Part shown: one piece after another, positions 840-53,968 of the stretch
How positions within the stretch are numbered: the first letter of the stretch is position 1
Layout: each line of letters starts with the position of its first letter
DNA from: Eledone cirrhosa
Taxonomy: Eukaryota
Reading direction: 5' to 3'
Length of the DNA stretch: 64,000 nucleotides
NCBI GenBank assembly: GCA_964016885.1
Contig: OZ024742.1
Location: forward strand, 224,626,001-224,690,000
Made by a program: the position numbers and the translations under genes
Notes under the pieces: generated by a model
Seen by the model: the letters and a program-made list of their open reading frames with translations, nothing else
Database searches by the model: none
What the model was told of the DNA's origin: nothing

Positions 840-1407
840 CAAAACACGCCGGAGTTAGCTTTGTCTTTCAGCCTTTCAGGATCAATGAAATAAAGTACCA
901 GTCACACACTGGTGTCGATTTAATCGAATTTCCCCTCTCCCCAAATATCTGGCCTTGTGCTTATAGTAAAAATCATTATTATTAGTGGATTGGCAGTATC
1001 GGTTGAGGGTCGGACGCCATGCTTTCCAGCATAGTTACGTCCCTTTACGATCTGAGTTCAAATCCCGCCGAGGTTGACTTTGCCTTTCATCCTTACGGGG
1101 TCGATAAAATAAAGTACCAGTGATGTACTGGGTAATTGCTGGCCTTGTGCCTAAAGTAGAAACAATTATTATTATTATTTCAAATCCCGCCGAGGTTACC
1201 TTTCCCTTTCATCCTTACGGGTCGATAAAATAAAGTACCAGTAATGTACTGGGTAATTGCTGGCCTTGTGCCTAAAGTAGAAACAATTATTATTATTATT
1301 TCAAATCCCGCCGAGGTTACCTTTCCCTTTCATCCTTACGGGTCGATAAAATAAAGTACCAGTAATGCACTGGGATAATTGGTGGCCTTGTGCCAATAGT
1401 AGAAACA

Positions 1408-1438
<31 letters not shown>
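840..1438 (+). mobile_element. Tandem array of tRNA-derived Nin-domain SINE copies (partial long variant, one near-full copy 985-1178, two 3'-half copies), each ending in (ATT)n
   Basis: A box TGGCAGTATCGG, B box GAGTTCAAATCC, Nin-like core GCCTTTCATCCTTACGGGGTCGATAAAATAAAGTACC, tail GGCCTTGTGCCTAAAGTAGAAACAATTATT. The family recurs more than 10 times in the window. Confidence 0.85.
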
Positions 1439-1439
<1 letters not shown>

Positions 1440-1674: not shown

Positions 1675-2060
1675 CACTGACCAAGAAACTCACTCAGATG
1701 GTGGATGGGTGCTACACGAGAATGCTGAGGATGGCTCTGCTGAACATTAATCAGTATACACTGAGGATGAAAAACTCAGAGTTGTATGGGAGCATCCCAA
1801 AAGTCAGCTCAAAAGTGACACAGAGTAGACTGAGGTTAGCTGGACATGCTCACCGACATCCAGAGTTGACATTGCACTCAGTGCTCCTTTGGGAGCCCCT
1901 ACATGGACACACTAGAAGAGGAAGACCAAGGTTAACGTATGTTGATGCCCTAAGGACAGACACTGGTCTGTTGGAGACGCAGGACATAGCAGCGATAATG
2001 AGGGACAGAGACCGCTGGAGAGAACTCGTCCATGGATCTCGGGAATTTTACCCGCCTTAG
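1670..2060 (+). mobile_element. 5'-truncated RTE-clade LINE, C-terminal ORF fragment, embedded in (TA)n
   Basis: WTLTKKLTQMVDGCYTRMLRMAL...RLRLAGHAHRH...LLWEP..GHTRRGRPRLTYVD...MRDRDRWR matches the typical RTE ORF C-terminus. Confidence 0.8.
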
Positions 2061-2232: not shown

Positions 2233-2419
2233 GGGCGGTGGATTGGCAGTATCGGTAGAGGGTCGGATGCCATGCTTTCCAGCATAGTTACGTCCCTTTA
2301 CGATCTGAGTTCAAATCCCGCCGAGGTTAACTTTGCCTTTCATCCTTACGAGGTCGATAGAATAAAGTACCAGTAATGCACTGGATAATTGCTGGCCTTG
2401 TGCCTAAAGTAGAAACAAA
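2233..2419 (+). mobile_element. Full-length Nin-type SINE with 15-bp TSD
   Basis: Starts GGGCGGTGGATTGGCAG; TSD TATTACATTGAGCTA at 2218-2232 and 2420-2434. Confidence 0.9.
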
Positions 2420-22321: not shown

Positions 22322-22531
22322 TATATTGTATTGATTTTTATACATTATATATATATATATATAGTAATAATAATAAATTTGAAGACTAAAATCCAAAGAG
22401 GGCTCGATTCTTTGCTTAAACTTTAATCTGTTATTTTAATAAATATATATATATATAATAAAAAATAAAATTTTCGCTCTACATGGCTGAATACAATAAA
22501 ATGTAATCTGAGTTTTTCGAATGTTAATAAT

Positions 22532-22747
22532 GGTTTCTTTTATAGGCACAAGGCCAGCAATTTTGGAGGAAGGGAAAGTCGATTAAACCGACCCCAGTGC
22601 GTGACTGGTACTTTATTTTATCGACCCCGTAAGGATGAAAGGCAAAGTTAACCTCGGCGGAATTTGAACTCAGATCATAAAGGACCGTAACTCTATGCTG
22701 CAAAGAATGGCGCCCGGCCCTCTACCGATACTGCCAATCCACCGCCC
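22532..22747 (-). mobile_element. Nin-type SINE, long variant, 19-bp TSD
   Basis: TSD TTTTTCGAATGTTAATAAT at 22513-22531 and 22748-22766. Confidence 0.9.
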
Positions 22748-22961
22748 TTTTTCGAATGTTAATAATAACATTCGACTCGTTTACAATTATGCAAACAAGC
22801 CTCAATTTTATAGCCATGTCAGTAGAATGAACCCTGCAGTTCTGTTCACATGCCAACACAAGAGCAAGAATGAAGTGTTCATTCTACTGACATGGCTATA
22901 CATTTGAGGCTCGTTTGCATAATTGCAAACGAATCGAATGTTATTATTAATATTCAAAAAA

Positions 22962-23135
22962 GGGCGGTGGATTGGCAGTATCGGTAGAGGGTCGGACGCC
23001 AAGCATAGAGTTACGGCTCTTGCCATTCTGAGTTCAAATCCCACCGTAGTTAACTCTGCCTTTCATCCTTACGATTAAATAAAGTACCAGTTATACACTG
23101 GGATAATTGCTGGCTTTGTGCCAAAAGTAGAAACA
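22962..23135 (+). mobile_element. Nin-type SINE, short variant, 19-bp TSD
   Basis: TSD ATTATTAATATTC(A/G)AAAAA at 22943-22961 and 23136-23154. Confidence 0.9.
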
Positions 23136-23171
23136 ATTATTAATATTCGAAAAACTCAGATTACATTTATT

Positions 23172-24603
<1,432 letters not shown>

Positions 24604-29436: not shown

Positions 29437-30078
29437 ATATATATAATATATATATATATAATATATATATATATAATATATATATAATATATATATAATA
29501 TATATATATAATATATATATATATATAATATATATATATATAATATATATATATAACATATATATAATATATGTGTGAATGAAGTAATTCCGTCGGAAAG
29601 GTCCAGGAAAAAAAAGGGTGCTCTATGTAGGTTACTGGTAAATGAAATAATTATCTTATGTTGTTTATTACATAACTATATATAATATATATATATAATA
29701 TATATAATATATATAGATACATATATACATTACGTGTACTTATATGTTCAAGGTTTACGATATATGTATAGTAAACAGGCAGACAGATAGAGACAGGCAG
29801 ATAGGCATGTTCCACCAACATATATGTTGCTAATAAACATATCTTCATACAAGCTCCCATATCGTCAGGCTGTCTCCACCTCTTCTATCTCTCTCACTCT
29901 CTACCAGTCTCATTCTCTCTCTCACGCTCTATATCGCCCTCTCTGCTTCTCTTCCTTCCATACACACACGATCATACTCATATCATCAGAATAGAGAGGC
30001 AAAATAACCCCAACTCCCTACAACACACCTCATCTCTCTTTCTTTGCATCTCTAACATACAATATGAGATTATTATAA

Positions 30079-30457
30079 GTGGATTGGCAGTATCGGTAGA
30101 GGATCGGACGCCATGCTTTGCGGCAAAGAGTTACGGTCCTTTATGATCTGAGTTCAAATCCCGCCGAGGTTAACTTTGCCTTTCATCCTTACGGGGTCGA
30201 TAAAATAAAGTACCAGTAATGTACTGGGTATTTGCAGGTCTTGTGCCAAAAGTAGAAACAATTATTTTGTAGTTCCGGTGGATTTGCAGTATTGGTAGAG
30301 AGTCGGACGCCATGCTTTCCAGCATAGTTACGTCCCTTTACGGTCTGAGTTCAAATCCTGCCGAGGTTAACTTTGCCTTTCATCCTTACGGGGCCGATAA
30401 AATAAAGTACCAGTAATGTACTGGGTTATTGCTGGTCTTGTGCCAAAAGTAGAAACA
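30079..30457 (+). mobile_element. Head-to-tail Nin-type SINE dimer
   Basis: Two copies (30079-30265, 30277-30457); ATTATTATAAG at 30069-30079 and 30458-30468. Confidence 0.85.
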
Positions 30458-30815
30458 ATTATTATAAGAGTTATTATTCAAATAAACTCCCTCGAATCAA
30501 CGGCTGAAAAACCATCACCACCATCACCTTCATCATCATGATCATCACTAGTATACCCCGCTCGATATCACTATATATCCTTTACAATAGCAGAAAGAAA
30601 TACCAACAATCTTCCACATGAATGTGAAATGTAGAAATCCTAGCTGCCTTCTCTCGCGTTCTCTCTTTTTCTCTCCGTCTTAACAATATATTAAGACATA
30701 TTTATAGAGAGAGAGACAGGGAGAAACTCACTCTCACACATAAAAATACATGCACGTGTATATGTACGTGTGTATGTTTGTATGTGTACATATACACACA
30801 CACTTATATATATAT

Positions 30816-30885: not shown

Positions 30886-31152
30886 AAGGATTTGGAACTG
30901 CCATGAGGTCAAAGTGGTCCCGATTGTCATAGGCGCACTAGGTACTATCTCAAAGAGTTTCCAAGGATGGCCAAAGAAAATTGGTCCCGCCCCGCTTTTT
31001 GGAACACTTCAAAAGGCATGCTTGTTGGGAACAGCAAGAATCCTCTGATACGCCATGAATATCTGAGGCTGCAGGTAGTGGCGTGATATTCATTTCAACA
31101 AACTTTCCAGTTAAATAACATCAATGACTGAGACTCAAAGAACTCAAAGAAC
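30886..31152 (+). mobile_element. R4/Dong-type RLE retrotransposon 3' fragment (family B) in (AAT)n
   Basis: RIWNCHEVKVVPIVIGALGTISK...LQKACLLGTARIL plus 3'UTR; near-identical to 46780-47034; (AAT)n on both sides. Confidence 0.88.
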
Positions 31153-31200
<48 letters not shown>

Positions 31201-31207
<7 letters not shown>

Positions 31208-43360: not shown

Positions 43361-44100
43361 GCCAACATAATAAAAAATGGGTGCAGCCCATTATGCCGTG
43401 TATGCAAAAAACAACCAGAGACCATTGACCATATAATTTCAATGTGCAGTCCTATAGCTCCAACGGAATACCTAAACAGGCATGACAGAGCTGCACAATA
43501 CATACATTGGATAATGTGTAAGCATTTTGACCTGCCCCATCAAAAGAATTGGTGGGAGCATCAACCACCTCCCATACTTGAAAAAGATCACATCTCAATC
43601 TTGTGGAACTTTAGCATCCAAACAGACCGAAAAATAGATGCAAATAGACCTGATATAATATTGAAGGACTTTCAAAGGAGGGTATGCCTGCTAATTGATA
43701 TGTCTGTTCCAATAGACAAGAATGTATCTATAAAAACATTTGAAAAATTGAGCAAGTATAAGGACCTGGAGATAGAAATTGGAAAAATGTGGAAATTGAG
43801 AACTAAAACAATACCAGTGGTTGTAGGCGCTCTGGGAATGATACCTAAGGGGTCTAACGACTACTTATCGCAAATCCCAGGAAACCCGCGTATAGGAGAA
43901 ATACAAAAGATAGTACTAATGGGAACTGCCCATATACTAAGGAAGATCCTGTCAATATAAGTACATCACAAGTCTAAACACTAAGGATGCATGTGTGAAT
44001 ATGTGTGTTCTTTCTTGAACATGGCGGACCTTGTTGTCTCTTGAGGTCACTGGTTGTGACTTGGTGATAACTCGTATAAACATAAAGCAAGATAAATGCA
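43361..44100 (+). mobile_element. R4/Dong-type RLE retrotransposon, family A, 5'-truncated
   Basis: CCHC finger CRVCKKQPETIDHIISMC, RHD, and RPDIIL..LIDMSVP...K..KY..L RLE motifs; stop at 43960; (AAT)n on both sides. Confidence 0.9.
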
Positions 44101-44136
<36 letters not shown>

Positions 44137-46058
44137 CAGGAGGTTTTTGTCATTCAGTATGAAGACATGGAAAACGACACTCCTTTTGAATAGTGAAACA
44201 AAATCACTGGAAGCTGGAGAAGTTAATATTAATTGTGGAATTTTTCAGGGTGACTCTTTAATACCGCTTTTATTCTGCATCGCACTTATACCATTAAGTA
44301 AAATGCTCAATGAAACAAAACATGGATATAAAGTCTATGACAAAACCATTAATCACTTGTTCTACATGGATGACCTGAAACTATTTGCAAAAAACGATGA
44401 ACAATTGCAAGGGCTATTATCCACTGTGGAGCAGTTCAGTGATGACATTAAAATGGAGTTTGGACTAGATAAATGCGCCAAAGCAACGTTCACCAGAGGA
44501 AAGCTGCTGAAAAGTTCAGACATTAATCTTGATCGGGGGAATGTGATAAGAGAACTTGATCAAGAGGAAACTTACAAATATCTAGGTGTTTGTGAAGGAG
44601 ACGGAATCAAGCACTCGACAATGAGGGAAAGGATAAGGAAGGAATGTTACCGCAGAGTAAGAGCAATCTTAAGAACGGAATTGAATGCAAGGAATAGGAT
44701 CGATGCCATAAACACGCTTGCCATACCAGTAGTAACCTACAGTTACAATGTCATCAACTGGTCAAGCACAGAGATCTGTAGGCTCGATACAAAAATTCGA
44801 AAATTCTTAACCATGCACAGAATGCATCACCCTAAGACAGATACAGATAGAATATATCTCCCTAGGAAAGAAGGACGACGTGGGTTAATCCAGTTAGACA
44901 TTGCGTTGAAAACTGCAACAATTGGATTATCTACATATCTAAGGGAATCACATGATTGGATGATCAAACTCGTTTTGAAACACGAAAGCATCAAAAGATC
45001 ATAATCCATTACAAAAGATGCACAAAGATACAGTAATGGACTACAAATTTCAGAAGTCCCATTTACTGCTGAAATGGAAAACACAGAAAAATCAAAGCAG
45101 GTAAAAGTAACTGCAAAGAAAGAACTGCTACATAAACTGGCTAAGAAATAGCAAGAAAAGCCTCTGTATGGAAAATACCCAGAACGAGCTAACAATCCTG
45201 ATATTGACAAAACTTTAACCCATCAGTGGTTGGCATCCTCTGGACTGAAATCGGAGACTGAAGGTCTGATTATATCAGCACAAGATCAGTGTCTGCCAAC
45301 AAAAAATTACCAAGCCAACATAATAAAAAATGGATGCAGCCCATTATGCCGTGTATGTAAAAAACAACCAGAGACCATCGACCATATAATTTCAATGTGC
45401 AGTCCTATAGCTCCAACCGAATACCTAAACAGGCATGACAGAGCTGCACAATACATACATTGGATAATGTGTAAGCATTTTGACCTGCCCCCATCAAAAG
45501 AATTGGTGGGAGCATCAACCACCTCCCATACTTGAAAAAGATCACATCTCAATCTTGTGGAACTTTAGCATCCAAACAGACCGAAAAATAGATGCAAATA
45601 AACCTGATATAATACTGAAGGACTTTAAAAAGAGGGTATGCCTGCTAATTGATATGTCCGTTCCAATAGACAAGAATGTATCTATAAAAACATTTGAAAA
45701 ATTGAGCAAGTATAAGGACCTGAAGATAGAAATTGGAAAAATGTGGAAATTGAGAACTAAAACAATACCAGTGGTTGTAGGCGCTCTAGGAATGATACCT
45801 AAGGGGTCTAATGATTACTTATCACAAATCCCAGGAAACCCGCGTATAGGAGAAATACAAAAGATAGTACTAATGGGAACTGCCCATATACTAAGGAAGA
45901 TTCTGTCAATATAAGTACATCATAAGTCTAAACACCTAAAGATGCATGTGTGAGTATGTATGTTCTTTCTTGAACATGGCGGACCTTGTTGTCTCTTGAG
46001 GTCACTGGTTGTGACTTGGTGATAACTCGTATGAACATAAAGCAAGATAAATGCAGCT

Positions 46059-46060
<2 letters not shown>
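44137..46060 (+). pseudogene. R4/Dong-type family A copy with RT, CCHC and RLE, disabled
   Basis: GIFQGDSL, HLFYMDDLKL, FGLDKCA and YKYLG RT motifs; stops at ~45002 and ~45149; one extra C at ~45490 relative to the 43361 copy. Confidence 0.9.
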
Positions 46061-46117
<57 letters not shown>

Positions 46118-46118
<1 letters not shown>

Positions 46119-47034
46119 TGCTCAGAGCTGTACTGAAGGAGGGGACAGTAGGCCAGGGGATACCCAAGGAGGAAATAACATCAAGGAGGAAGAGCAGCCT
46201 TAAGGGAAAATCCCTTCATAGTACCTTCTTTGAGAAAACTGAATTTAGAGATCCACAGACATGGAACTGGTTGAGAAGAGGAGACCCCAAAAAGGCTACA
46301 GAAGGAATGCTAATGGCTGCGCAGGAGCAGGCCCGCAAAACGAAGTGGTTGAAGCACCATATCTACAAGGAGGAGGCTAGCCCACTGTGCAGGATCTGTG
46401 GAGAGAGAGAGGAGACTGTGGCTCACATTGTGTCCGAGTGTAAACACCTAGCCCAGACCCACTATAAGGGCTGGAGACACGATGTGATGGGCAGGGTGAT
46501 CCACTGGCACCTGTGCAAAGTAAACAATCTACCACATTCTGAGAAATGGTATGAGCATAGGCCAGAGGCGGTGATGGAGAACAGTCAGGTGAAGGTGCTG
46601 TGGGATTTTAGGATACAGACGGACAAAAAACTGGAACACAATAGACCTGACCTGGTGGTTGTGGACAAAGAAAAAAGATCGTGCCTGATTGTGGATGTGG
46701 CCTGCCCGTTCGACACGAGAGTGCAAGAGAAGGAGAGGGAGAAAATTAACCGATACCAGGACCTAAAGTGGGAGGTGAAAAGGATTTGGAACTGCCATGA
46801 AGTCAAAGTGATCCCGATTGTCATAGGCGCACTGGGGACTATCTCCAAAGGTTTCCAGGGATGGTTAAAGAAAATCGGCCCCTTCACGCTTTTTGGAACG
46901 CTTCAAAAGGCATGCTTGCTTGGAACGGCAAGAACCCTCCGATACGTCCTGAATATCTGAGGCTGCAGGTAGTGGCTTGATATTCAATCCAACGGACTTT
47001 CCAGTTAACCAACATCAATGACTGAGATTCAAGG
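46118..47034 (+). mobile_element. R4/Dong-type RLE retrotransposon, family B, 5'-truncated
   Basis: AAQEQA, CRICGEREETVAHIVSEC, RHD, RPDLVVVD..IVDVACP...EKINRYQDL; stop at 46960; (AAT)n flanks. Confidence 0.9.
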
Positions 47035-47046
47035 AATAACAATAAC

Positions 47047-47090
<44 letters not shown>

Positions 47091-47350
47091 TTTCTTTATT
47101 AACCACAAGGGTTTACATAAAGTAGACATTAAGGACAGTGCAGGACAATGCAGGACGGTACAAATGGGCATTTCTGCGTGTAAAAAAACAAAAACAGAGG
47201 ATGTAACAAAAATAACAATGAAAATAACAATGAAAAATTCCCCAATAGGGGGGAGACTTCGGAGGGACATTTGTGGAGAAAGCCCAGTAAAAAGCCACAA
47301 TGACCCTGACCACCAAGGCAAGTGCCCTCTCCCAGTTTTCCACCTTTAGT

Positions 47351-50300
47351 TTACAGATATATACTCAGAGTCGACCCATTCACTCGGGCCATTCTTGCTT
47401 CTCTCACCCATCTTTCAACAAAATGCTGGGAAGAGAGCACTTCCTTCTCTACTCTGATTTTCCTTTTCAAATGAAATTTGAAAAAGTCAATCAGAGCATC
47501 ACCGAAGAGGTAAGTGCTCGTCTTCAGCCCTTTCAAACGTGTCCACCATACTATCTCTTTCGCCATGGCCACCAGACAGATAAAAACTGCCTGCCCTTCC
47601 CGGCTAAAGGAGGAGGGCGGGGCAATCCTCACGATAGACTCAGATGATAGCTGGATCCGTCCTAAACGCGACAGCAGGTGTTCGACATAAACCCACAAGT
47701 CAGCAATTTTCGGACACTGGACGAGTGCGTGCAGGACGGTTTCGTCGCCCTGCGCGCATCTCGGACATGCCCGGCTGACGGCACCTCCATGCCTGTAGAG
47801 TTTATCCCGAACTGGCAAGGCTCCTCGGTAGCACTGCCAGGCCAGAGATTTCTGGAAGTTGTCCATAGGCCCTGGCCCGAAAGTTCTTCCGAAGAGATTG
47901 GCTAGTTGATTTTCGTCGACGCCTAGAGTTTCCCCAAGTACGTCGTCGCTCTTCCCCTCCACTAATCCTCTATAGAACGCCGAGGTGGAGTTTCCACCGA
48001 TCACATTGCCCGATTGGTCGAGGGCTGTGAGCGCCTGAAGACATTCCAGTCTCCAGGCGCTCCCTCTCGGTCTTCGCTTGACCCAGGACTGCAGCTCCGT
48101 CAAGGAAACGAGCTGGGGAAAAACGCGTCTAGCAAACGGCGACCACACCTGATCACCGTCGAGGAAGAGGTGGAGATGTCGTAGCCTGAGCGCGTGCCTG
48201 CGCATCATCAGCCACGGCATGCCCAGCCCTCCACGTAGCGGGTGTTGACAACAGATGGACCGCCTGACCATCGGAGCACGTCCCTTCCACAAAAAGCGAA
48301 AGAGCAAACGCTCCAGCGCAGTCAGGCGAGGCTTAGGACAAGGTACGACGGTTAGGCGGTAGCAGATGACAGACGCGATGTACGCGTTAGCCACCTCCGC
48401 TCGACCTTTCAGGGATAGCTTCCTCTCCGCCCATTTCTGGGTGAGAGAAGCCACCCTGCTCGTCACCTCGTCCCAGTTTTTGTCCGTCTGGAGGTCCGGA
48501 CCGAACCAGACCCCTAGCAATTTAACCGGTCCGTCCGTCCAGCGCCCGACGACGCTGTTGGACGGCATGGACCTGCCTCTCCAGGTGCCGAGCTGCAGGC
48601 CCACTGACTTTTCCTGGTTGATCATTGCTCCTGTCACCGCTTCGTATTCTCTTAGTGTAGTGCCGATCGCCTCGATGTGTTTGGCGTTCGACACCACTAC
48701 GGTGACATCGTCCGCATATGCTGACACGGATCTTCCGCATCCTAGTTCGCGCGGGACTCCCCTCAACGTCTCCAGTTTGTGCAGTAATGGCTCGAGAGTC
48801 AATACGTACAAGAGGGACGAGAGGGGACATCCTTGGCGGACCGAGCGCATGATGTTGAACGGTTCCGACAGGTGACCGTTCACTCTCACCACAGAGCAGA
48901 TGTCGCTGTGCATGGCAGCGATCCAGCCTCTGAAGACGGGCCCAAAGCCAGCCGCCCTCAGGACTGCCGCTAGGTAACGATGGTCGACCCTATCGAAAGC
49001 TTTCGACTGATCTAAATTGATCAAGGACCCACCCGTGCCAGGTTCCCTAGCTACCCTCTCTACGATGTATCGCATGAGGTGGAGGTTGTCGTGGATGGAT
49101 CTGTCGGGAATGGCGCATGTCTGCGCCTCTCCCACCAGACCACCAACGACAAGCGCCAACCTCTTTGCTAGCACCTTGGCCAAAATCTTAAACTCTGTGT
49201 TTAGCAGAGTTATGGGCCGGAAATTGTCTATGTTATCCCCCTTGTTCGGATCCTTTCTCAGCAGTGCCACCGCTCCTCGGCTCACAGAACTGGGAATTCT
49301 CCCGTTCTGTTGCCAGTTGCAGTAGACGTCCGCCAAGAGGCCTCCGAACAAGTCTGGCATCTGTACGTAAAGTTCATAGGGCAGACCATCCAAACCAGGC
49401 GATTTACCCCTTGTGCAGCCAGTCATTGCCTCCCGTACTTCAGCGGCTGTTATCGGCTTTTCGCAACACCTCGCCTCAGTGGCCGAGAGCCGCGGCAGTC
49501 CGTCGAGGTAGACACTAAAGTCCATCCCTCTACCCGGCCCCCCGCTGCCCCCGAACAGCTGAGCGAAGTGTCGCTGAAAAGCTTCACACATTTGCCCGGG
49601 ATCGAGTAGCATGCGCCCGTCGTGGTCCACCAAAGACCGGATCGTGGCTTTGTTGCCACGACGCGCCTCCGCCACTCGGGCCCATTGAACGGCTTTCGTC
49701 CCCTCGTGTCTGAGAGCACGCACCCTAGCTCTGACAACGCAGCCTTCGTGCTTTGCATTGAAGAATTGGTCAAGGGCCAATTTCGCCGCAAGCACGTCGG
49801 TCGCAATGCCTTTGCTAAGCGCCTCGTCTAATTTTCTAACTAGTTCTCCCTCTGCTCTATTTTTCTCTATTGCTAAAGCCTTACTAAACCTAATCGATTC
49901 TATTCTAATCGCTCTTTTCAGAGCAAACCACCACTTGTTGTTGACGATGGCCCCCGTCAACGCCCGCTTAACTAGTTCGCTAATCCGGTCTCTGTAGGCC
50001 TTGCGCGCTGGTAAGGACGCGTTTAGCTTCCAGTAGCCGGGTCCTCGTCTATGAAGCCTATCTAAGTCAAGCACACAGGTCACGAATTTGTGGTCCGTGT
50101 AGCTGACTATCTTGAATTGTGGACAGCCTATGCTAGACCTATCTATTTCCCTACAAAATACTCTATCTAGATATGATCTGGATGACCCTATGCGGTTTGT
50201 CCAAGTCCACATTGGCACATTCGGGAAATCCAATCGGTACCTGTCAGACAGTTCAAAACGCCTGAGCAGGTTGGTGAGGCTCTTGCACCCTCCACCCCTA

Positions 50301-50770
50301 TCCGCTAATCCCACACAGTCCCAGCGTGCATCTAAGATCCCGTTCCAGTCGCCCACTAACACTAAAGAGCGGGACGTTCCAAGAAAGGTCTCCAGACGCC
50401 GGAAGAAATCAGGCCGCCCTGCTCCTGTCGGGGCATAGACGGCCACTAGCCTGAAAGCTTTCCCGTCTCCGCTGGTCACGTCCAGCACCACCAGCTTACC
50501 CTCTGGGTCCAGGAAGATGGCCCGTATGGCGAGATCCAAACCTCTCCGAAAAAGCACAGCAACTCCTCCACCCGATCCAGGACGGCTGGGAGATGCGTAC
50601 ACATCGTAGCCGCCGAAGATCGGTGCGAAGGCCCGTGCTTCGGAGATTCTGGTCTCGCTGATGGCCACTACATCTATGTTTAGTGACCTGAGGTCGTTGA
50701 GCAGGTGACCCTGCTTCCATGACGACCCCAAGCCACGCGCATTTATGCTGCCTATTCTGAGTGAGGTCAT
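47351..50770 (-). CDS. LINE ORF2: APE endonuclease, reverse transcriptase and C-terminal zinc finger (1139 aa, open)
   Basis: APE: SINARGL, ISET, VGDWN, YLDR, TDH. RT: FRPITLLN, LDQSKAFDRVDH, VRQGCPLS, AYADD. Zinc finger: CPRC..GDETVLHALVQC. Confidence 0.95.
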   Translation of the reverse strand: MTSLRIGSINARGLGSSWKQGHLLNDLRSLNIDVVAISETRISEARAFAPIFGGYDVYASPSRPGSGGGVAVLFRRGLDLAIRAIFLDPEGKLVVLDVTSGDGKAFRLVAVYAPTGAGRPDFFRRLETFLGTSRSLVLVGDWNGILDARWDCVGLADRGGGCKSLTNLLRRFELSDRYRLDFPNVPMWTWTNRIGSSRSYLDRVFCREIDRSSIGCPQFKIVSYTDHKFVTCVLDLDRLHRRGPGYWKLNASLPARKAYRDRISELVKRALTGAIVNNKWWFALKRAIRIESIRFSKALAIEKNRAEGELVRKLDEALSKGIATDVLAAKLALDQFFNAKHEGCVVRARVRALRHEGTKAVQWARVAEARRGNKATIRSLVDHDGRMLLDPGQMCEAFQRHFAQLFGGSGGPGRGMDFSVYLDGLPRLSATEARCCEKPITAAEVREAMTGCTRGKSPGLDGLPYELYVQMPDLFGGLLADVYCNWQQNGRIPSSVSRGAVALLRKDPNKGDNIDNFRPITLLNTEFKILAKVLAKRLALVVGGLVGEAQTCAIPDRSIHDNLHLMRYIVERVAREPGTGGSLINLDQSKAFDRVDHRYLAAVLRAAGFGPVFRGWIAAMHSDICSVVRVNGHLSEPFNIMRSVRQGCPLSSLLYVLTLEPLLHKLETLRGVPRELGCGRSVSAYADDVTVVVSNAKHIEAIGTTLREYEAVTGAMINQEKSVGLQLGTWRGRSMPSNSVVGRWTDGPVKLLGVWFGPDLQTDKNWDEVTSRVASLTQKWAERKLSLKGRAEVANAYIASVICYRLTVVPCPKPRLTALERLLFRFLWKGRAPMVRRSICCQHPLRGGLGMPWLMMRRHALRLRHLHLFLDGDQVWSPFARRVFPQLVSLTELQSWVKRRPRGSAWRLECLQALTALDQSGNVIGGNSTSAFYRGLVEGKSDDVLGETLGVDENQLANLFGRTFGPGPMDNFQKSLAWQCYRGALPVRDKLYRHGGAVSRACPRCAQGDETVLHALVQCPKIADLWVYVEHLLSRLGRIQLSSESIVRIAPPSSFSREGQAVFICLVAMAKEIVWWTRLKGLKTSTYLFGDALIDFFKFHLKRKIRVEKEVLSSQHFVERWVREARMARVNGSTLSIYL

Positions 50771-50805
50771 GTTTAAAATAGAGTGGAAAAGATGGGAAAG
50801 ACCAC

Positions 50806-52902
50806 TTACCGTACTTTTGGTAGAGGAGGGATGGTTTTTACATCCCTTTTCACTTGATCGTCTGGTGAAGGGACCGTTGAATCGTCCCTTCGGCTGGTCG
50901 TCGGCTCTTCTAAGAGAATGTCTGAATATACTCTTCGATTGATGGTTCCTCCTAGGTCCCTGAAATCACCAACTGCGTTGGGGAATTTCGTTTTAATGTT
51001 TGTGTATTGTTTCTGTGCTATTTTTAGCAGTCTTATGTTAGTTGGCGTTTTGATTGGTGCTGGTATTATGTAGTCCTGTTGTGAAATGTCTGTGTGTTCA
51101 ATTATGTAAGTCATTAGTTTCTTGTTGTGTGTGTTTATTGCCGTGCATTTGTTTTTCTGGGGGTGGGGTGTGGTTCTGCTATTTTCTTGTCGTTGTTGCT
51201 GGGTGTGTGTGTTTTGTTGTTGTGTTTGCGATGTTGGTGCTTGTGGTGGTGGTGTTGAAGGTGTTGTTGGCGGTGGGGTTGTCGCCGGTGGTGATGGTGG
51301 TGCTGGTCTGGGTGGTGATGGTGTTGGTGGTGTTGCTGCTGTGGGTCTCTTTGCAGTAGACTTTACCCTTTTCTCATTTCTTTCCTCCCTTTTCAAAGGC
51401 GACGATGCGCTGCTTCTGCGTTTGTGCCTTCTTGCGACCTTTTGCCATCCCTCTCCCACCTCACACTCCATGTCTGATTCTGTAAGGTCGGGGAGGGGTA
51501 CCAGCTCCACTCTTTCACTTGTTGTTGTTGGTGATGTTTGCACTGGAGTCTCTGTTGCAGCTGCATTTGGTATTGCTGTTGTTGTTGTTAATATTTCCAC
51601 TGCTGCTGCTGTCTTTGATTTCCGTGGAGTGGGTATGGGTGCCACGGACCTATCGTTCCTGGTTGCCGCTTGTCCTGTTGCTGGTAGCCGTGGAGCCGGA
51701 TTCGGAAGGAGGGGGGTTTTCTCCTTTCTCAGGGTCTTCTCGTTGCAGAAGGCCCTGAGGTGAGTCTTCGATCCACAGCGAAAGCATTTCGGGCGTTTGC
51801 CCTCAACACTTATGGGCAGTTGAGTGCCGTTATCGAAGTCTATCACATCCGGGATAGCTTCGATGCACTCCTGGTTGGTTTGGATTAGCATCTCAATGGA
51901 GGAGCCGACCCAATCTTCTCTTACTTTTTTCTGTACTTGCAGTACAGTTGTTTTGTCCTCGATTCCGACGAGGACAGACGCGGCCAGCCAAGAAGGGGTC
52001 ATTCCGGGGGGGACGTGGGTCAGTTTGACCCTCACAATTTTTTGCCCGCAGTAGGAGGGCACCAACACCATTTCCTCGCTCCTTAGGGTCACTACTGATT
52101 GGGCCTTTGCCTCCTGGGGTGTGGCAAAAAGTACGTCTACGGTGGCGTATTTTTTGCCTCGGGTGATGTGCGTTTTCCTCTGCCACACAGACCCCAAGGC
52201 TTTTTGTATTTGGGCCTCTGTGGCTCTTTCCACCCTACGGGATTTTGTACTTACTGTACGGTACGTGACCGTACAGTGCTCTTGGGTTTCGAAAAAATTT
52301 TTCGCTGCCTTGCAGATTGCTCGGTGTCCGTTCTTTGTCACCATCTTCTTCGCTTCCTCTAATTCCTCATTTGTTATGAGGATTGTTTCCAAGTTTTTCG
52401 CAATACCTGCAAATGAGATTGGTTTTTCTCTGCTGTTGTTGTTGTCGTCAGAGCTGCTGGTACTTTTGTTGTTGCTGCAGGTACTACGACTACTGCCTCC
52501 GCCGCTGTTGCTGTGGTTGTTGTTGGTGTTGCTGCTGCTAATGCTGTTGTTGTTTATGCTGCTGGTGATGCTGTTGCGGCTGCTACTGTTGTTTTCATTG
52601 TCACTGTTGCTGTTGTTATTACGGCTGCTACTGCTATTATTCCTGACGTCAGACGAATGAACTGGGTTTTCGTATTTCCCGCACACCTGTTTCGTCGCTG
52701 TCGTCGTCGTCGTGGAGAAACCTTGCACGCTTTGCACGAGACTTTTCTTTTCTTTCGTCGCTTGCGAAAGAGAAGGGAGGGAGAGAGACACATTTAAAGA
52801 AGGGAGGGAGAGAGACAATCTTCTCTCTGCTGTAGTGATGATTGAGGAAGAAGAAGACGGAATGAGTGGGAGTGACGTATGAAATTTCTTTTTCGTAGCC
52901 AT
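50806..52902 (-). CDS. LINE ORF1, gag-like nucleic-acid-binding protein (698 aa from first ATG)
   Basis: Zinc knuckle CFRCGSKTHLRAFC, an SFAGIAK motif, a Ser/Asn-rich N-terminus and a Pro/Thr-rich region; ATG at 52902. Confidence 0.85.
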   Translation of the reverse strand: MATKKKFHTSLPLIPSSSSSIITTAERRLSLSLPSLNVSLSLPSLSQATKEKKSLVQSVQGFSTTTTTATKQVCGKYENPVHSSDVRNNSSSSRNNNSNSDNENNSSSRNSITSSINNNSISSSNTNNNHSNSGGGSSRSTCSNNKSTSSSDDNNNSREKPISFAGIAKNLETILITNEELEEAKKMVTKNGHRAICKAAKNFFETQEHCTVTYRTVSTKSRRVERATEAQIQKALGSVWQRKTHITRGKKYATVDVLFATPQEAKAQSVVTLRSEEMVLVPSYCGQKIVRVKLTHVPPGMTPSWLAASVLVGIEDKTTVLQVQKKVREDWVGSSIEMLIQTNQECIEAIPDVIDFDNGTQLPISVEGKRPKCFRCGSKTHLRAFCNEKTLRKEKTPLLPNPAPRLPATGQAATRNDRSVAPIPTPRKSKTAAAVEILTTTTAIPNAAATETPVQTSPTTTSERVELVPLPDLTESDMECEVGEGWQKVARRHKRRSSASSPLKREERNEKRVKSTAKRPTAATPPTPSPPRPAPPSPPATTPPPTTPSTPPPQAPTSQTQQQNTHTQQQRQENSRTTPHPQKNKCTAINTHNKKLMTYIIEHTDISQQDYIIPAPIKTPTNIRLLKIAQKQYTNIKTKFPNAVGDFRDLGGTINRRVYSDILLEEPTTSRRDDSTVPSPDDQVKRDVKTIPPLPKVR

Positions 52903-53142
52903 GTTTTTTTTGTTTAAAATGAAATTTTGGGTACAAAACCCCAATAACTGGTTATTTAACCCCGAAGGGCCAAATAACGGACAGAAAGACCCCTCTCACG
53001 AGGAGGAGGGTGTCTTTATCAACAATTTGGTTCAAGTTTTAAACAATTTACAATTGTTTTAACGGTTAAAAATTACTATACCTTACAGAGCCGAGCCTCC
53101 GTCAACCATGGCATTCAATAATAATAATAATAATAATAATAA

Positions 53143-53331
53143 AAGTTTCCAAGGATGGTTAAAGAAAATTGGCCCCGCCCCGCTTTTTGGAACACTTCAA
53201 AAGGCATGCTTGCTGGGAACAGCAAGAACCCTCCGATACGTCCTGAATATCTGAGGCTGCAGGTAGTGGCTTGATATTCATTTCAACAAACTTTCCAGTT
53301 AACTAACATCAATGATTGAGACTCAAAGAAC
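53143..53331 (+). mobile_element. R4/Dong family B 3' fragment
   Basis: FQGWLKKIGP..LFGTLQKACLLGTARTLRYVLNI* plus 3'UTR and AAT tail. Confidence 0.88.
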
Positions 53332-53968
53332 AATAATAATATTAATTATAATTGTTTCTACTTTTGGCACAAGGCCAGCAATCACCCAGTGCATTACTGG
53401 TTAACAATATTAATAAATGGAAAATATCTTTATAATACCATATTTTGAATGATAATCAACATGCCGTATAACTCATTGTTTTATACATATATATGATATA
53501 TAGTTTAGGGATTGCAACGTCAAGTTACTGTAGGTTCACCAGAGTGAGCACTTGATGCGTAGTCTCCTGTGGGTATATAGGTGTTGTACTAAGCAGGGTG
53601 TAATCATTTTTTCTACTTTTGGCACAAGGCCAGCAATTATCTCAGTGTATTACTGGTACTTTATTTTATCAATAATAATAAAAGTACGAAGTGTTAAATC
53701 TTCAATACATTCATTGAGGTGTGACGCGCGTTTCGCGATTGATCAGCACATTGTTCGATCTGTATCGATCGGGTCAGACTCTGGAATCAAAAGCTGGTCG
53801 AGCTTCTGTTATGTCACTACCATAACAGAAGTCCGACGAGCTTTTGATTCCAGAGTCGAGCCCGATCGATACATATCGAACCTTCAGTTGATAAATCGCG
53901 AAAGACGCGCGTCACACCTCAATGAATGTATTGAAGATTTAACACCTCGTTGTTTTTATTATATATAT

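Follow-up and report, generated by a model that had tools for sequence, protein, structure and literature searches.

Pairs formed by a SINE and a LINE are already well known. In the L2 clade, the cognate stem-loop is recognized and bound by the ORF2 protein, and retrotransposition drops when this structure is mutated; the eel UnaL2 and the zebrafish ZfL2-1 and ZfL2-2 pairs have a short common 3′ tail with a stem-loop (PMC4176376). Stringent pairs of the L1 clade include LINE1-1_ZM with maize and sorghum SINEs and L1-1_CR with SINEX-3_CR, and the available text of the survey by Ohshima covers 58 pairs, three of which involve a SINE with an L1 tail, the examples described being from plants and one green alga (PMC3472496). 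In crocodilians, Tx1-Mar was proposed as the partner of SINEU through a shared target preference, and tandem insertions were described; the SINEU elements combine snRNA heads with a poly(A) tail, and the available portion of that paper reports no LINE sharing the 3′ end of SINEU-1 (PMC4494074). According to the same source, the Tx1 families Kibi and Koshi target (TC)n and (TTC)n. Annotations of octopus genomes list abundant tRNA SINEs (tRNA-Deu and tRNA-Core) beside active L1-Tx1, CR1 and Dong-R4 LINEs (PMC8967140, PMC13282606). The available text of one review mentions Tx1 five times, always in passages on phylogeny (PMC3747384), and the main text of a survey of bivalve SINEs carries no mention of it (PMC11481361). 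The tail-sharing partners published in these sources belong to CR1, L2, RTE, I, Tad1 and plant or algal L1, the sole Tx1 case, SINEU, being one of target preference only. No tail-sharing SINE/Tx1 pair was found in the open-access literature searched.

The elements described here were found in a 64,000-nucleotide stretch of Eledone cirrhosa DNA (the window) and in further copies across the genome. Their comparison suggests that an abundant SINE is likely the non-autonomous partner of ATT-targeting Tx1-like LINEs, in a stringent SINE/Tx1 partnership. Like the eel and zebrafish pairs, the two have a short common 3′ tail with a stem-loop; unlike the described L2-clade pairs, the putative partner is Tx1/L1-like, there is a target preference with target site duplications (TSDs) of 12–20 bp, and the hairpin is a predicted one. 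The Tx1 partner, the target preference and the tandem insertions recall SINEU/Tx1-Mar, but the SINE studied here has a tRNA-like head, and its tail, its predicted hairpin and its target are all common with Tx1. Insertion into microsatellites resembles that of Kibi and Koshi, the differences being that the targets are (ATT)n and ATCT-like repeats and that the available text of PMC4494074 mentions no partner SINE for those families. With the plant and algal L1 pairs the locus shares an L1-related LINE, a conserved 3′ hairpin with compensatory changes and a SINE carrying the same hairpin; unlike them, it involves an animal Tx1-like lineage and a microsatellite end. Co-occurrence of tRNA SINEs and L1-Tx1 is common to the octopus annotations; in their available text, no LINE partner is named for the SINEs. 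As judged from sequence, the new part would be the tail-sharing Tx1 partner.

The LINE, called family A here, is full-length and occupies 6,028 bp of the minus strand (47089–53116, with the ends set by means of other copies). Its ORF1 (50806–52902, minus strand, 698 aa counted from the first ATG) and ORF2 (47351–50770, minus strand, 1,139 aa counted from the first ATG) are both open frames. ORF1 has no match in Pfam and contains a CCHC-type knuckle by sequence reading, while Pfam searches found endonuclease, reverse transcriptase and zf-RVT domains in ORF2, where the catalytic motifs are present. This is the layout expected of a LINE of the Tx1 clade: two ORFs with an APE endonuclease, a reverse transcriptase and a C-terminal zinc-binding domain. 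The closest named relative of ORF2 is the 'Transposon TX1 uncharacterized 149 kDa protein' (311 bits); human L1 ORF2p gave 181 bits in a different search. Family A is young and large. Its 5′ 24-mer has 1,628 exact matches in the genome, and the best 40 of 1,094 candidate copies are about 100% identical across the last 416 bp. In long alignments, family A copies differ from the window copy by about 2–7%, and the sister Tx1 families by 20–30%. Full-length Tx1 5′ ends were also seen clustered at 5–7 kb spacing, partly in head-to-tail arrays (L080–L083 and L085–L087; G000:C1 55.43–55.54 Mb).

The initial annotation placed the LINE in (ATT)n in its own polarity, and such tracts indeed lie on both flanks, at the 3′ end (47035–47088, minus strand) and ahead of the 5′ end (53117–53142, minus strand). 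On the plus strand, the first of them reads as (AAT)n and forms the tail of a Dong/R4-like element, and the LINE is placed in (AAT)n between two Dong-like copies lying on the opposite strand. These elements, which we take to be Dong/R4-like and which show a restriction-like endonuclease motif by eye, are nested and in tandem, belong to two families and have (AAT)n between them (43361–47034, 53141–53330 and 30886–31205, all on the plus strand). Other family A copies have similar surroundings. ATTATT directly follows the 3′ end in 30/30 of the top copies, and at least four ATT units precede the 5′ end, by eye, in all of 30 other copies; a Tx1 tail stands before the 5′ end in 12/30 and a SINE tail in 5/30. 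Again by eye, 7 of the top 30 copies have a second copy behind them in head-to-tail order, and in 12 the 3′ end meets a Dong-like 3′ end tail to tail. The target-sequence preference expected of the Tx1 clade is thus found in family A. The SINE and Tx1 elements are nested in each other in one polarity, and SINE inserts after Tx1 tails were also seen.

The SINE is short, non-coding, dispersed and abundant, with TSDs and 5′-truncated copies. An exact 26-base stretch of its tail has 137,049 matches genome-wide, which sets the copy number at 137,049 or more, and SINE matches span 19,580 of 770,000 sampled bases (about 2.5%). In the head, stretches resembling an A box and a B box, and ends complementary to each other, were recognized by eye with box consensus sequences that we take to be the standard ones; ARAGORN and Rfam gave no tRNA match. 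The labels 'Nin-type' and 'dominant SINE' of the initial annotation are provisional ones; short motifs from the central domain did not retrieve a Nin/Deu entry in the published supplements searched. Copies 120 bases long or longer (77 in all) fall into a long form (32 copies, median 14.5% from the consensus) and a short form (45 copies, median 6.8%), and only 1/45 short-form copies is within 2% of its consensus. The short form is without about 28 bases upstream of the hairpin, yet it has spread.

The window holds several copies of this SINE. A full-length short-form copy lies at 2233–2419 (plus strand), with hairpin GGC/GCC around CTTGT and a 15-bp TSD (2218–2232 and 2420–2434); the stretch around it (2210–2460) is a repeat, an apparently empty copy of which (L161) agrees by eye with the TSD. 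The initial annotation had also reported TSDs at or next to ATT at 22513, on the minus strand, at 22943 and at 30069. The duplications themselves are real, but those at 22513 (19 bp) and 22943 (19 bp, one mismatch) represent a single site present in both arms of an inverted repeat (22440–23200) and are therefore not independent. Each arm carries a SINE at this identical site: in the left arm a copy of the older long form (22532–22746, minus strand, ends approximate), and in the right arm a short-form copy (22962–23134, plus strand, ends approximate). This pair could have arisen by two separate insertions into one site or, once the site had been duplicated, by gene conversion. Rfam matches near 22.8 kb fall on the inverted repeat and are far below gathering scores. 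A head-to-tail dimer (30080–30457, plus strand) is flanked by an 11-bp TSD (30069–30079 and 30458–30468). A further SINE (975–1439, plus strand) has a 3′ part in tandem (121-bp unit), lies behind another SINE tail and ends in (ATT)n. Beside the LINE 5′ end, the Dong-like fragment contains in its AAT-rich tail a 5′-truncated copy (53335–53401, minus strand, in the polarity of the LINE).

The ungapped identity of 21/28 previously noted between the 3′ tails was reproduced with LINE positions 47083–47110 (minus strand) and the SINE copy at 1143–1170. Without the six ATT bases it amounts to 15/22, and the 40 bases upstream match at 9/40 only. A short match of this kind, with nothing comparable upstream in the window LINE, might reflect chance or convergence in an AT-rich genome filled with ATT repeats, a reading that we nonetheless regard as highly improbable. 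At the given base composition, the analytic chance of 15/22 or more is about 7e-5 per comparison. When sites before ATTAT were collected from 770 kb taken at round-number positions, 42/4,195 reached 15/22 and the reversed control gave 0/3,967; by eye, these 42 sites are 37 SINE-type tails and 5 Tx1 tails. The genome contains 37,513 instances of CCTTGTG with three ATT units 17–18 bases further on, vs. 22 in the controls. The pattern CCTTGTG-N8-AGAAA, with one mismatch allowed, has 85 matches in 600 kb (75 SINE-like, 7 Tx1 and 3 unrelated) and 4 in the reversed control. The likeness also extends across about 48 bases when the long SINE form is compared with the tails of sister Tx1 families, and the TSD register is common to both elements. 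The shared 3′-terminal sequence expected of a stringent pair is present, and it is short (22–48 bases).

Specificity was assessed with other 3′ ends. The tails of five Tx1 families match three SINE tails at 11–18/22; eight other 3′ ends match them at 1–9/22, none above shuffles. The eight decoys were limited to families met in the sampled DNA and comprised the ends of a CR1-like, three RTE-like and two Dong-like families (clade names that we assume from protein motifs) and of two unassigned ATT-tailed repeats, the ends of two RTE-like families being approximate. The CR1-like family, a young one, also ends in (ATT)n, so an ATT tail is not by itself diagnostic of Tx1, and its 945-aa frame, its short (ATT)n tail and the fact that it supplies most of the best reverse transcriptase matches would make it, or a LINE of another clade, a candidate for mobilizing the SINE, with the Tx1-like tail retained from an earlier partner; tail swaps have been described among mollusc SINEs in the available text of PMC11481361. 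We consider this improbable, since the last 22 bases of the CR1-like family match the SINE tails at 2–4/22, below shuffles, and ATTAT marks the start of the SINE TSDs, in the register seen for Tx1. The CR1-like copies (L317–L346) have an apparent 3′ hairpin of their own, and one of them, L340, carries a SINE inserted at ATTAT in its 3′ UTR. A LINE with a much better match to the SINE tail, which would have spoken against the pair first proposed, was absent from the eight non-Tx1 ends; within Tx1, sister families fit the older SINE tail better than the window LINE does.

The best match to the SINE tail is that of family C, with 17–18/22 and with 31/48 ungapped against the long form, and family B locally outscores family A against long-form tails. 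This better fit of the sister families points to an ancestral Tx1 element as the donor of the tail. The tail pattern CCCTTGTGG-NN-AATAAAGAAA has 18,769 matches in the genome and none in the control, and upstream ORF2 homology, at 56% to 98% identity, was present at 24/30 loci of this pattern. Five Tx1-like families keep the shared tail, and their ORF2 sequences are 56–80% identical to that of the window LINE. Families A and A2/E end in ATT, families C and D in ATCT-like or TAT repeats; family B is a further ATT-ending Tx1 family, with at least 1,540 copies. Sister families with the same tail hairpin and ATCT-like or TAT targets were seen at L145, L148, L153, L155–L157, L162, L164, L165, L167 and L168. 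These target differences represent target switching inside one Tx1 lineage. In a tree built without L233 and six database proteins, which were too short, and without reference Tx1 sequences, the ATT-type families group at 83/94, short of firm support.

A search for LINEs with a SINE-type end returned 514 matches. The 30 loci examined were 27 SINE copies (25 identified by script and 2 by eye), 2 single-base variants of family A and L243, an old Tx1 copy with a tail of the long-form SINE type (L243/L306, G000:C1 near 55,766,800). As a LINE family with a SINE-type end, L243 was rejected, its end being the sole one of this kind among 30 B-type loci; it is a probable chimera joined at the shared loop, or else a remnant of the lineage that donated the tail. 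The end of L305 departs from the L243 type by a single base. A metagenome scan for the tail pattern yielded 9 matches, all of them lacking both ORF2 homology and a repeat tail.

The shared tail is predicted to form a hairpin. In the LINE, this structure (47101–47113, minus strand) has a 4-bp stem, AACC/GGTT, and the loop CTTGT, and is followed by AATAAA and GAAA. In both elements, the order is a stem around CTTGT, GAAA, two bases and a TSD starting with ATTAT. A C-G pair closes the loop in every aligned tail, the invariance of CTTGT being partly by construction because the tails were collected on that loop. The second pair is C-G in 66/69 Tx1 tails and G-C in 183/205 SINE tails, a swap by which the first two LINE/SINE mismatches are compensated upstream. 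The third pair is G-C in 36, A-T in 29, G-T in 3 and unpaired in 1 of the 69 Tx1 tails, and G-C in 192/205 SINE tails. In 22 distinct hand-picked tails, 85% of the cells are paired and three of the four pairs change on both sides; the covariation score of these tails was reached by 0/500 shuffles, slid controls giving 16–57%. On two of five covariation measures the tails did no better than shuffles (301/500 and 197/500), and these values rest on few independent changes and on shuffles that ignore the relatedness of the tails. The stem is 3–4 pairs long, with the outer pair open in 12/22 tails, and the hairpin appears in register in 8/9 minimum free energy folds, with weak z-scores (0.0 to −2.6). 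The remaining three mismatches ahead of GAAA fall in or beside AATAAA, a motif retained in all Tx1 tails and drifted in the SINE, as would be expected if the SINE were a Pol III transcript needing no poly(A) signal. The conserved 3′ stem-loop expected of a stringent pair is present, then, as a prediction with compensatory changes.

The short and weak stem leaves some room for another reading, in which Tx1 mobilizes the SINE by relaxed recognition of an AUU end together with the endonuclease site, and the hairpin is a relic or serves RNA processing or stability. The L1-type elements of animals are described as relaxed in the available text of PMC3472496, and the SINE tail fits best a family that targets ATCT. 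Set against this, the loop and the pairing have been kept by compensatory change in Tx1 families and SINE forms, and the adjoining AATAAA has drifted in the SINE while the hairpin was kept. We hold relaxed recognition to be unlikely, if less so than mobilization by a CR1-like family, and consider it probable, from the comparison of these sequences, that the SINE is mobilized in a hairpin-dependent way by the ATT-type Tx1 lineage.

The integration signature was examined with TSDs anchored on their non-ATTAT part, which worked for 53/230 SINE tails and for 1/230 in the control. An earlier unanchored scan, with 37/86 vs. a high control of 12/86, was superseded by this test. The target pentamer is ATTAT in 44/53 SINE TSDs and has at most one mismatch in 52/53; 9 of the 53 come from loci preselected for ATT, and without them ATTAT is found in 36/44. 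The TSDs in the anchored test are 12–20 bp long and begin about two bases after GAAA. In the same register, the 3′ flanks of Tx1 copies have ATTAT in 25/27 cases for family A, 17/23 for B and 4/6 for A2/E, vs. 0/17 for families C and D, and five ATT-type Tx1 copies have TSD candidates of 12–21 bp. Site and TSD length, the integration signature expected of a stringent pair, are thus shared. The two elements differ in how deep the ATT tract runs, with three ATT units at 5/53 SINE targets and 6/85 SINE 3′ flanks, vs. 20/27 (A) and 14/23 (B) LINE flanks. This gap could stem from a longer AUU run on the RNA of the LINE or from an older, less strict family. Two statements of the initial annotation need revision. 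That both elements end in (ATT)n does not usually hold for the SINE if a long tract is meant, as ATTAT follows 60/85 SINE copies and three ATT units just 6/85; and the SINE mostly targets the pentamer ATTAT instead of the (ATT)n microsatellite.

Target-primed reverse transcription, which is well established, was together with the L2-clade pairs the basis for the mechanism that we propose. A tRNA-headed SINE would have taken its tail from an ancestral Tx1 element, and ORF2p would recognize the predicted 3′ RNA hairpin carried by both elements. The protein would then nick the strand opposite ATTAT and prime reverse transcription, probably helped by pairing of the AUU end of the RNA with the target, and a second nick 12–20 bases further would produce the TSD. 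The shared tail motif and hairpin and the same five-letter insertion site make it likely that the SINE borrows the Tx1 enzyme for its copying. The hairpin, the compensatory pairs, the decoys and the start and length of the TSDs all support the original proposal that the window LINE or a relative of it drives the SINE. Against it, family C, the best match to the SINE tail, targets ATCT-like repeats and not ATT, and young SINE copies are few vs. many near-identical LINE copies. The spread of SINE ages, with medians of 6.8% for the short form and 14.5% for the long one, points to copies made by successive members of the Tx1 lineage and not only by the young subfamily of the window. Because few SINE copies are as young, it is rather doubtful that this subfamily made most of them.

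Taken more broadly, we lean towards an animal Tx1-like lineage that combines stringent recognition of a hairpin with loop CUUGU and a diverged endonuclease target, and whose element of about 30 bases has been exploited by a tRNA SINE with more than 100,000 copies. If this is true, a likely engine can be named for the SINE that fills about 2.5% of the sampled DNA, and a Tx1 LINE acquires a tail-sharing SINE partner. It would also bear on whether animal L1-related enzymes kept stringent RNA recognition and would offer a natural system that parts template choice from target choice in such an enzyme, with a testable minimal signal for which compensatory variants and a deletion exist in nature. Sister families with one hairpin and different targets are suited to domain swaps between template and target recognition.

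The Tx1 families have another short 3′ UTR motif in common, made up of a C run, TATT and a G run, which may also form a hairpin; it was not seen in the SINE. In the window LINE it lies at about 47232–47245 (minus strand), and it is present at loci L141–L170 as well. Further retroelement remains in the window include a 479-aa frame without a Pfam match (62152–63591, minus strand), which looks Penelope-like, and two pieces that we take to be a CR1-like fragment (60656–61240, plus strand) and an RTE-like 3′ end (about 1830–2060, plus strand).
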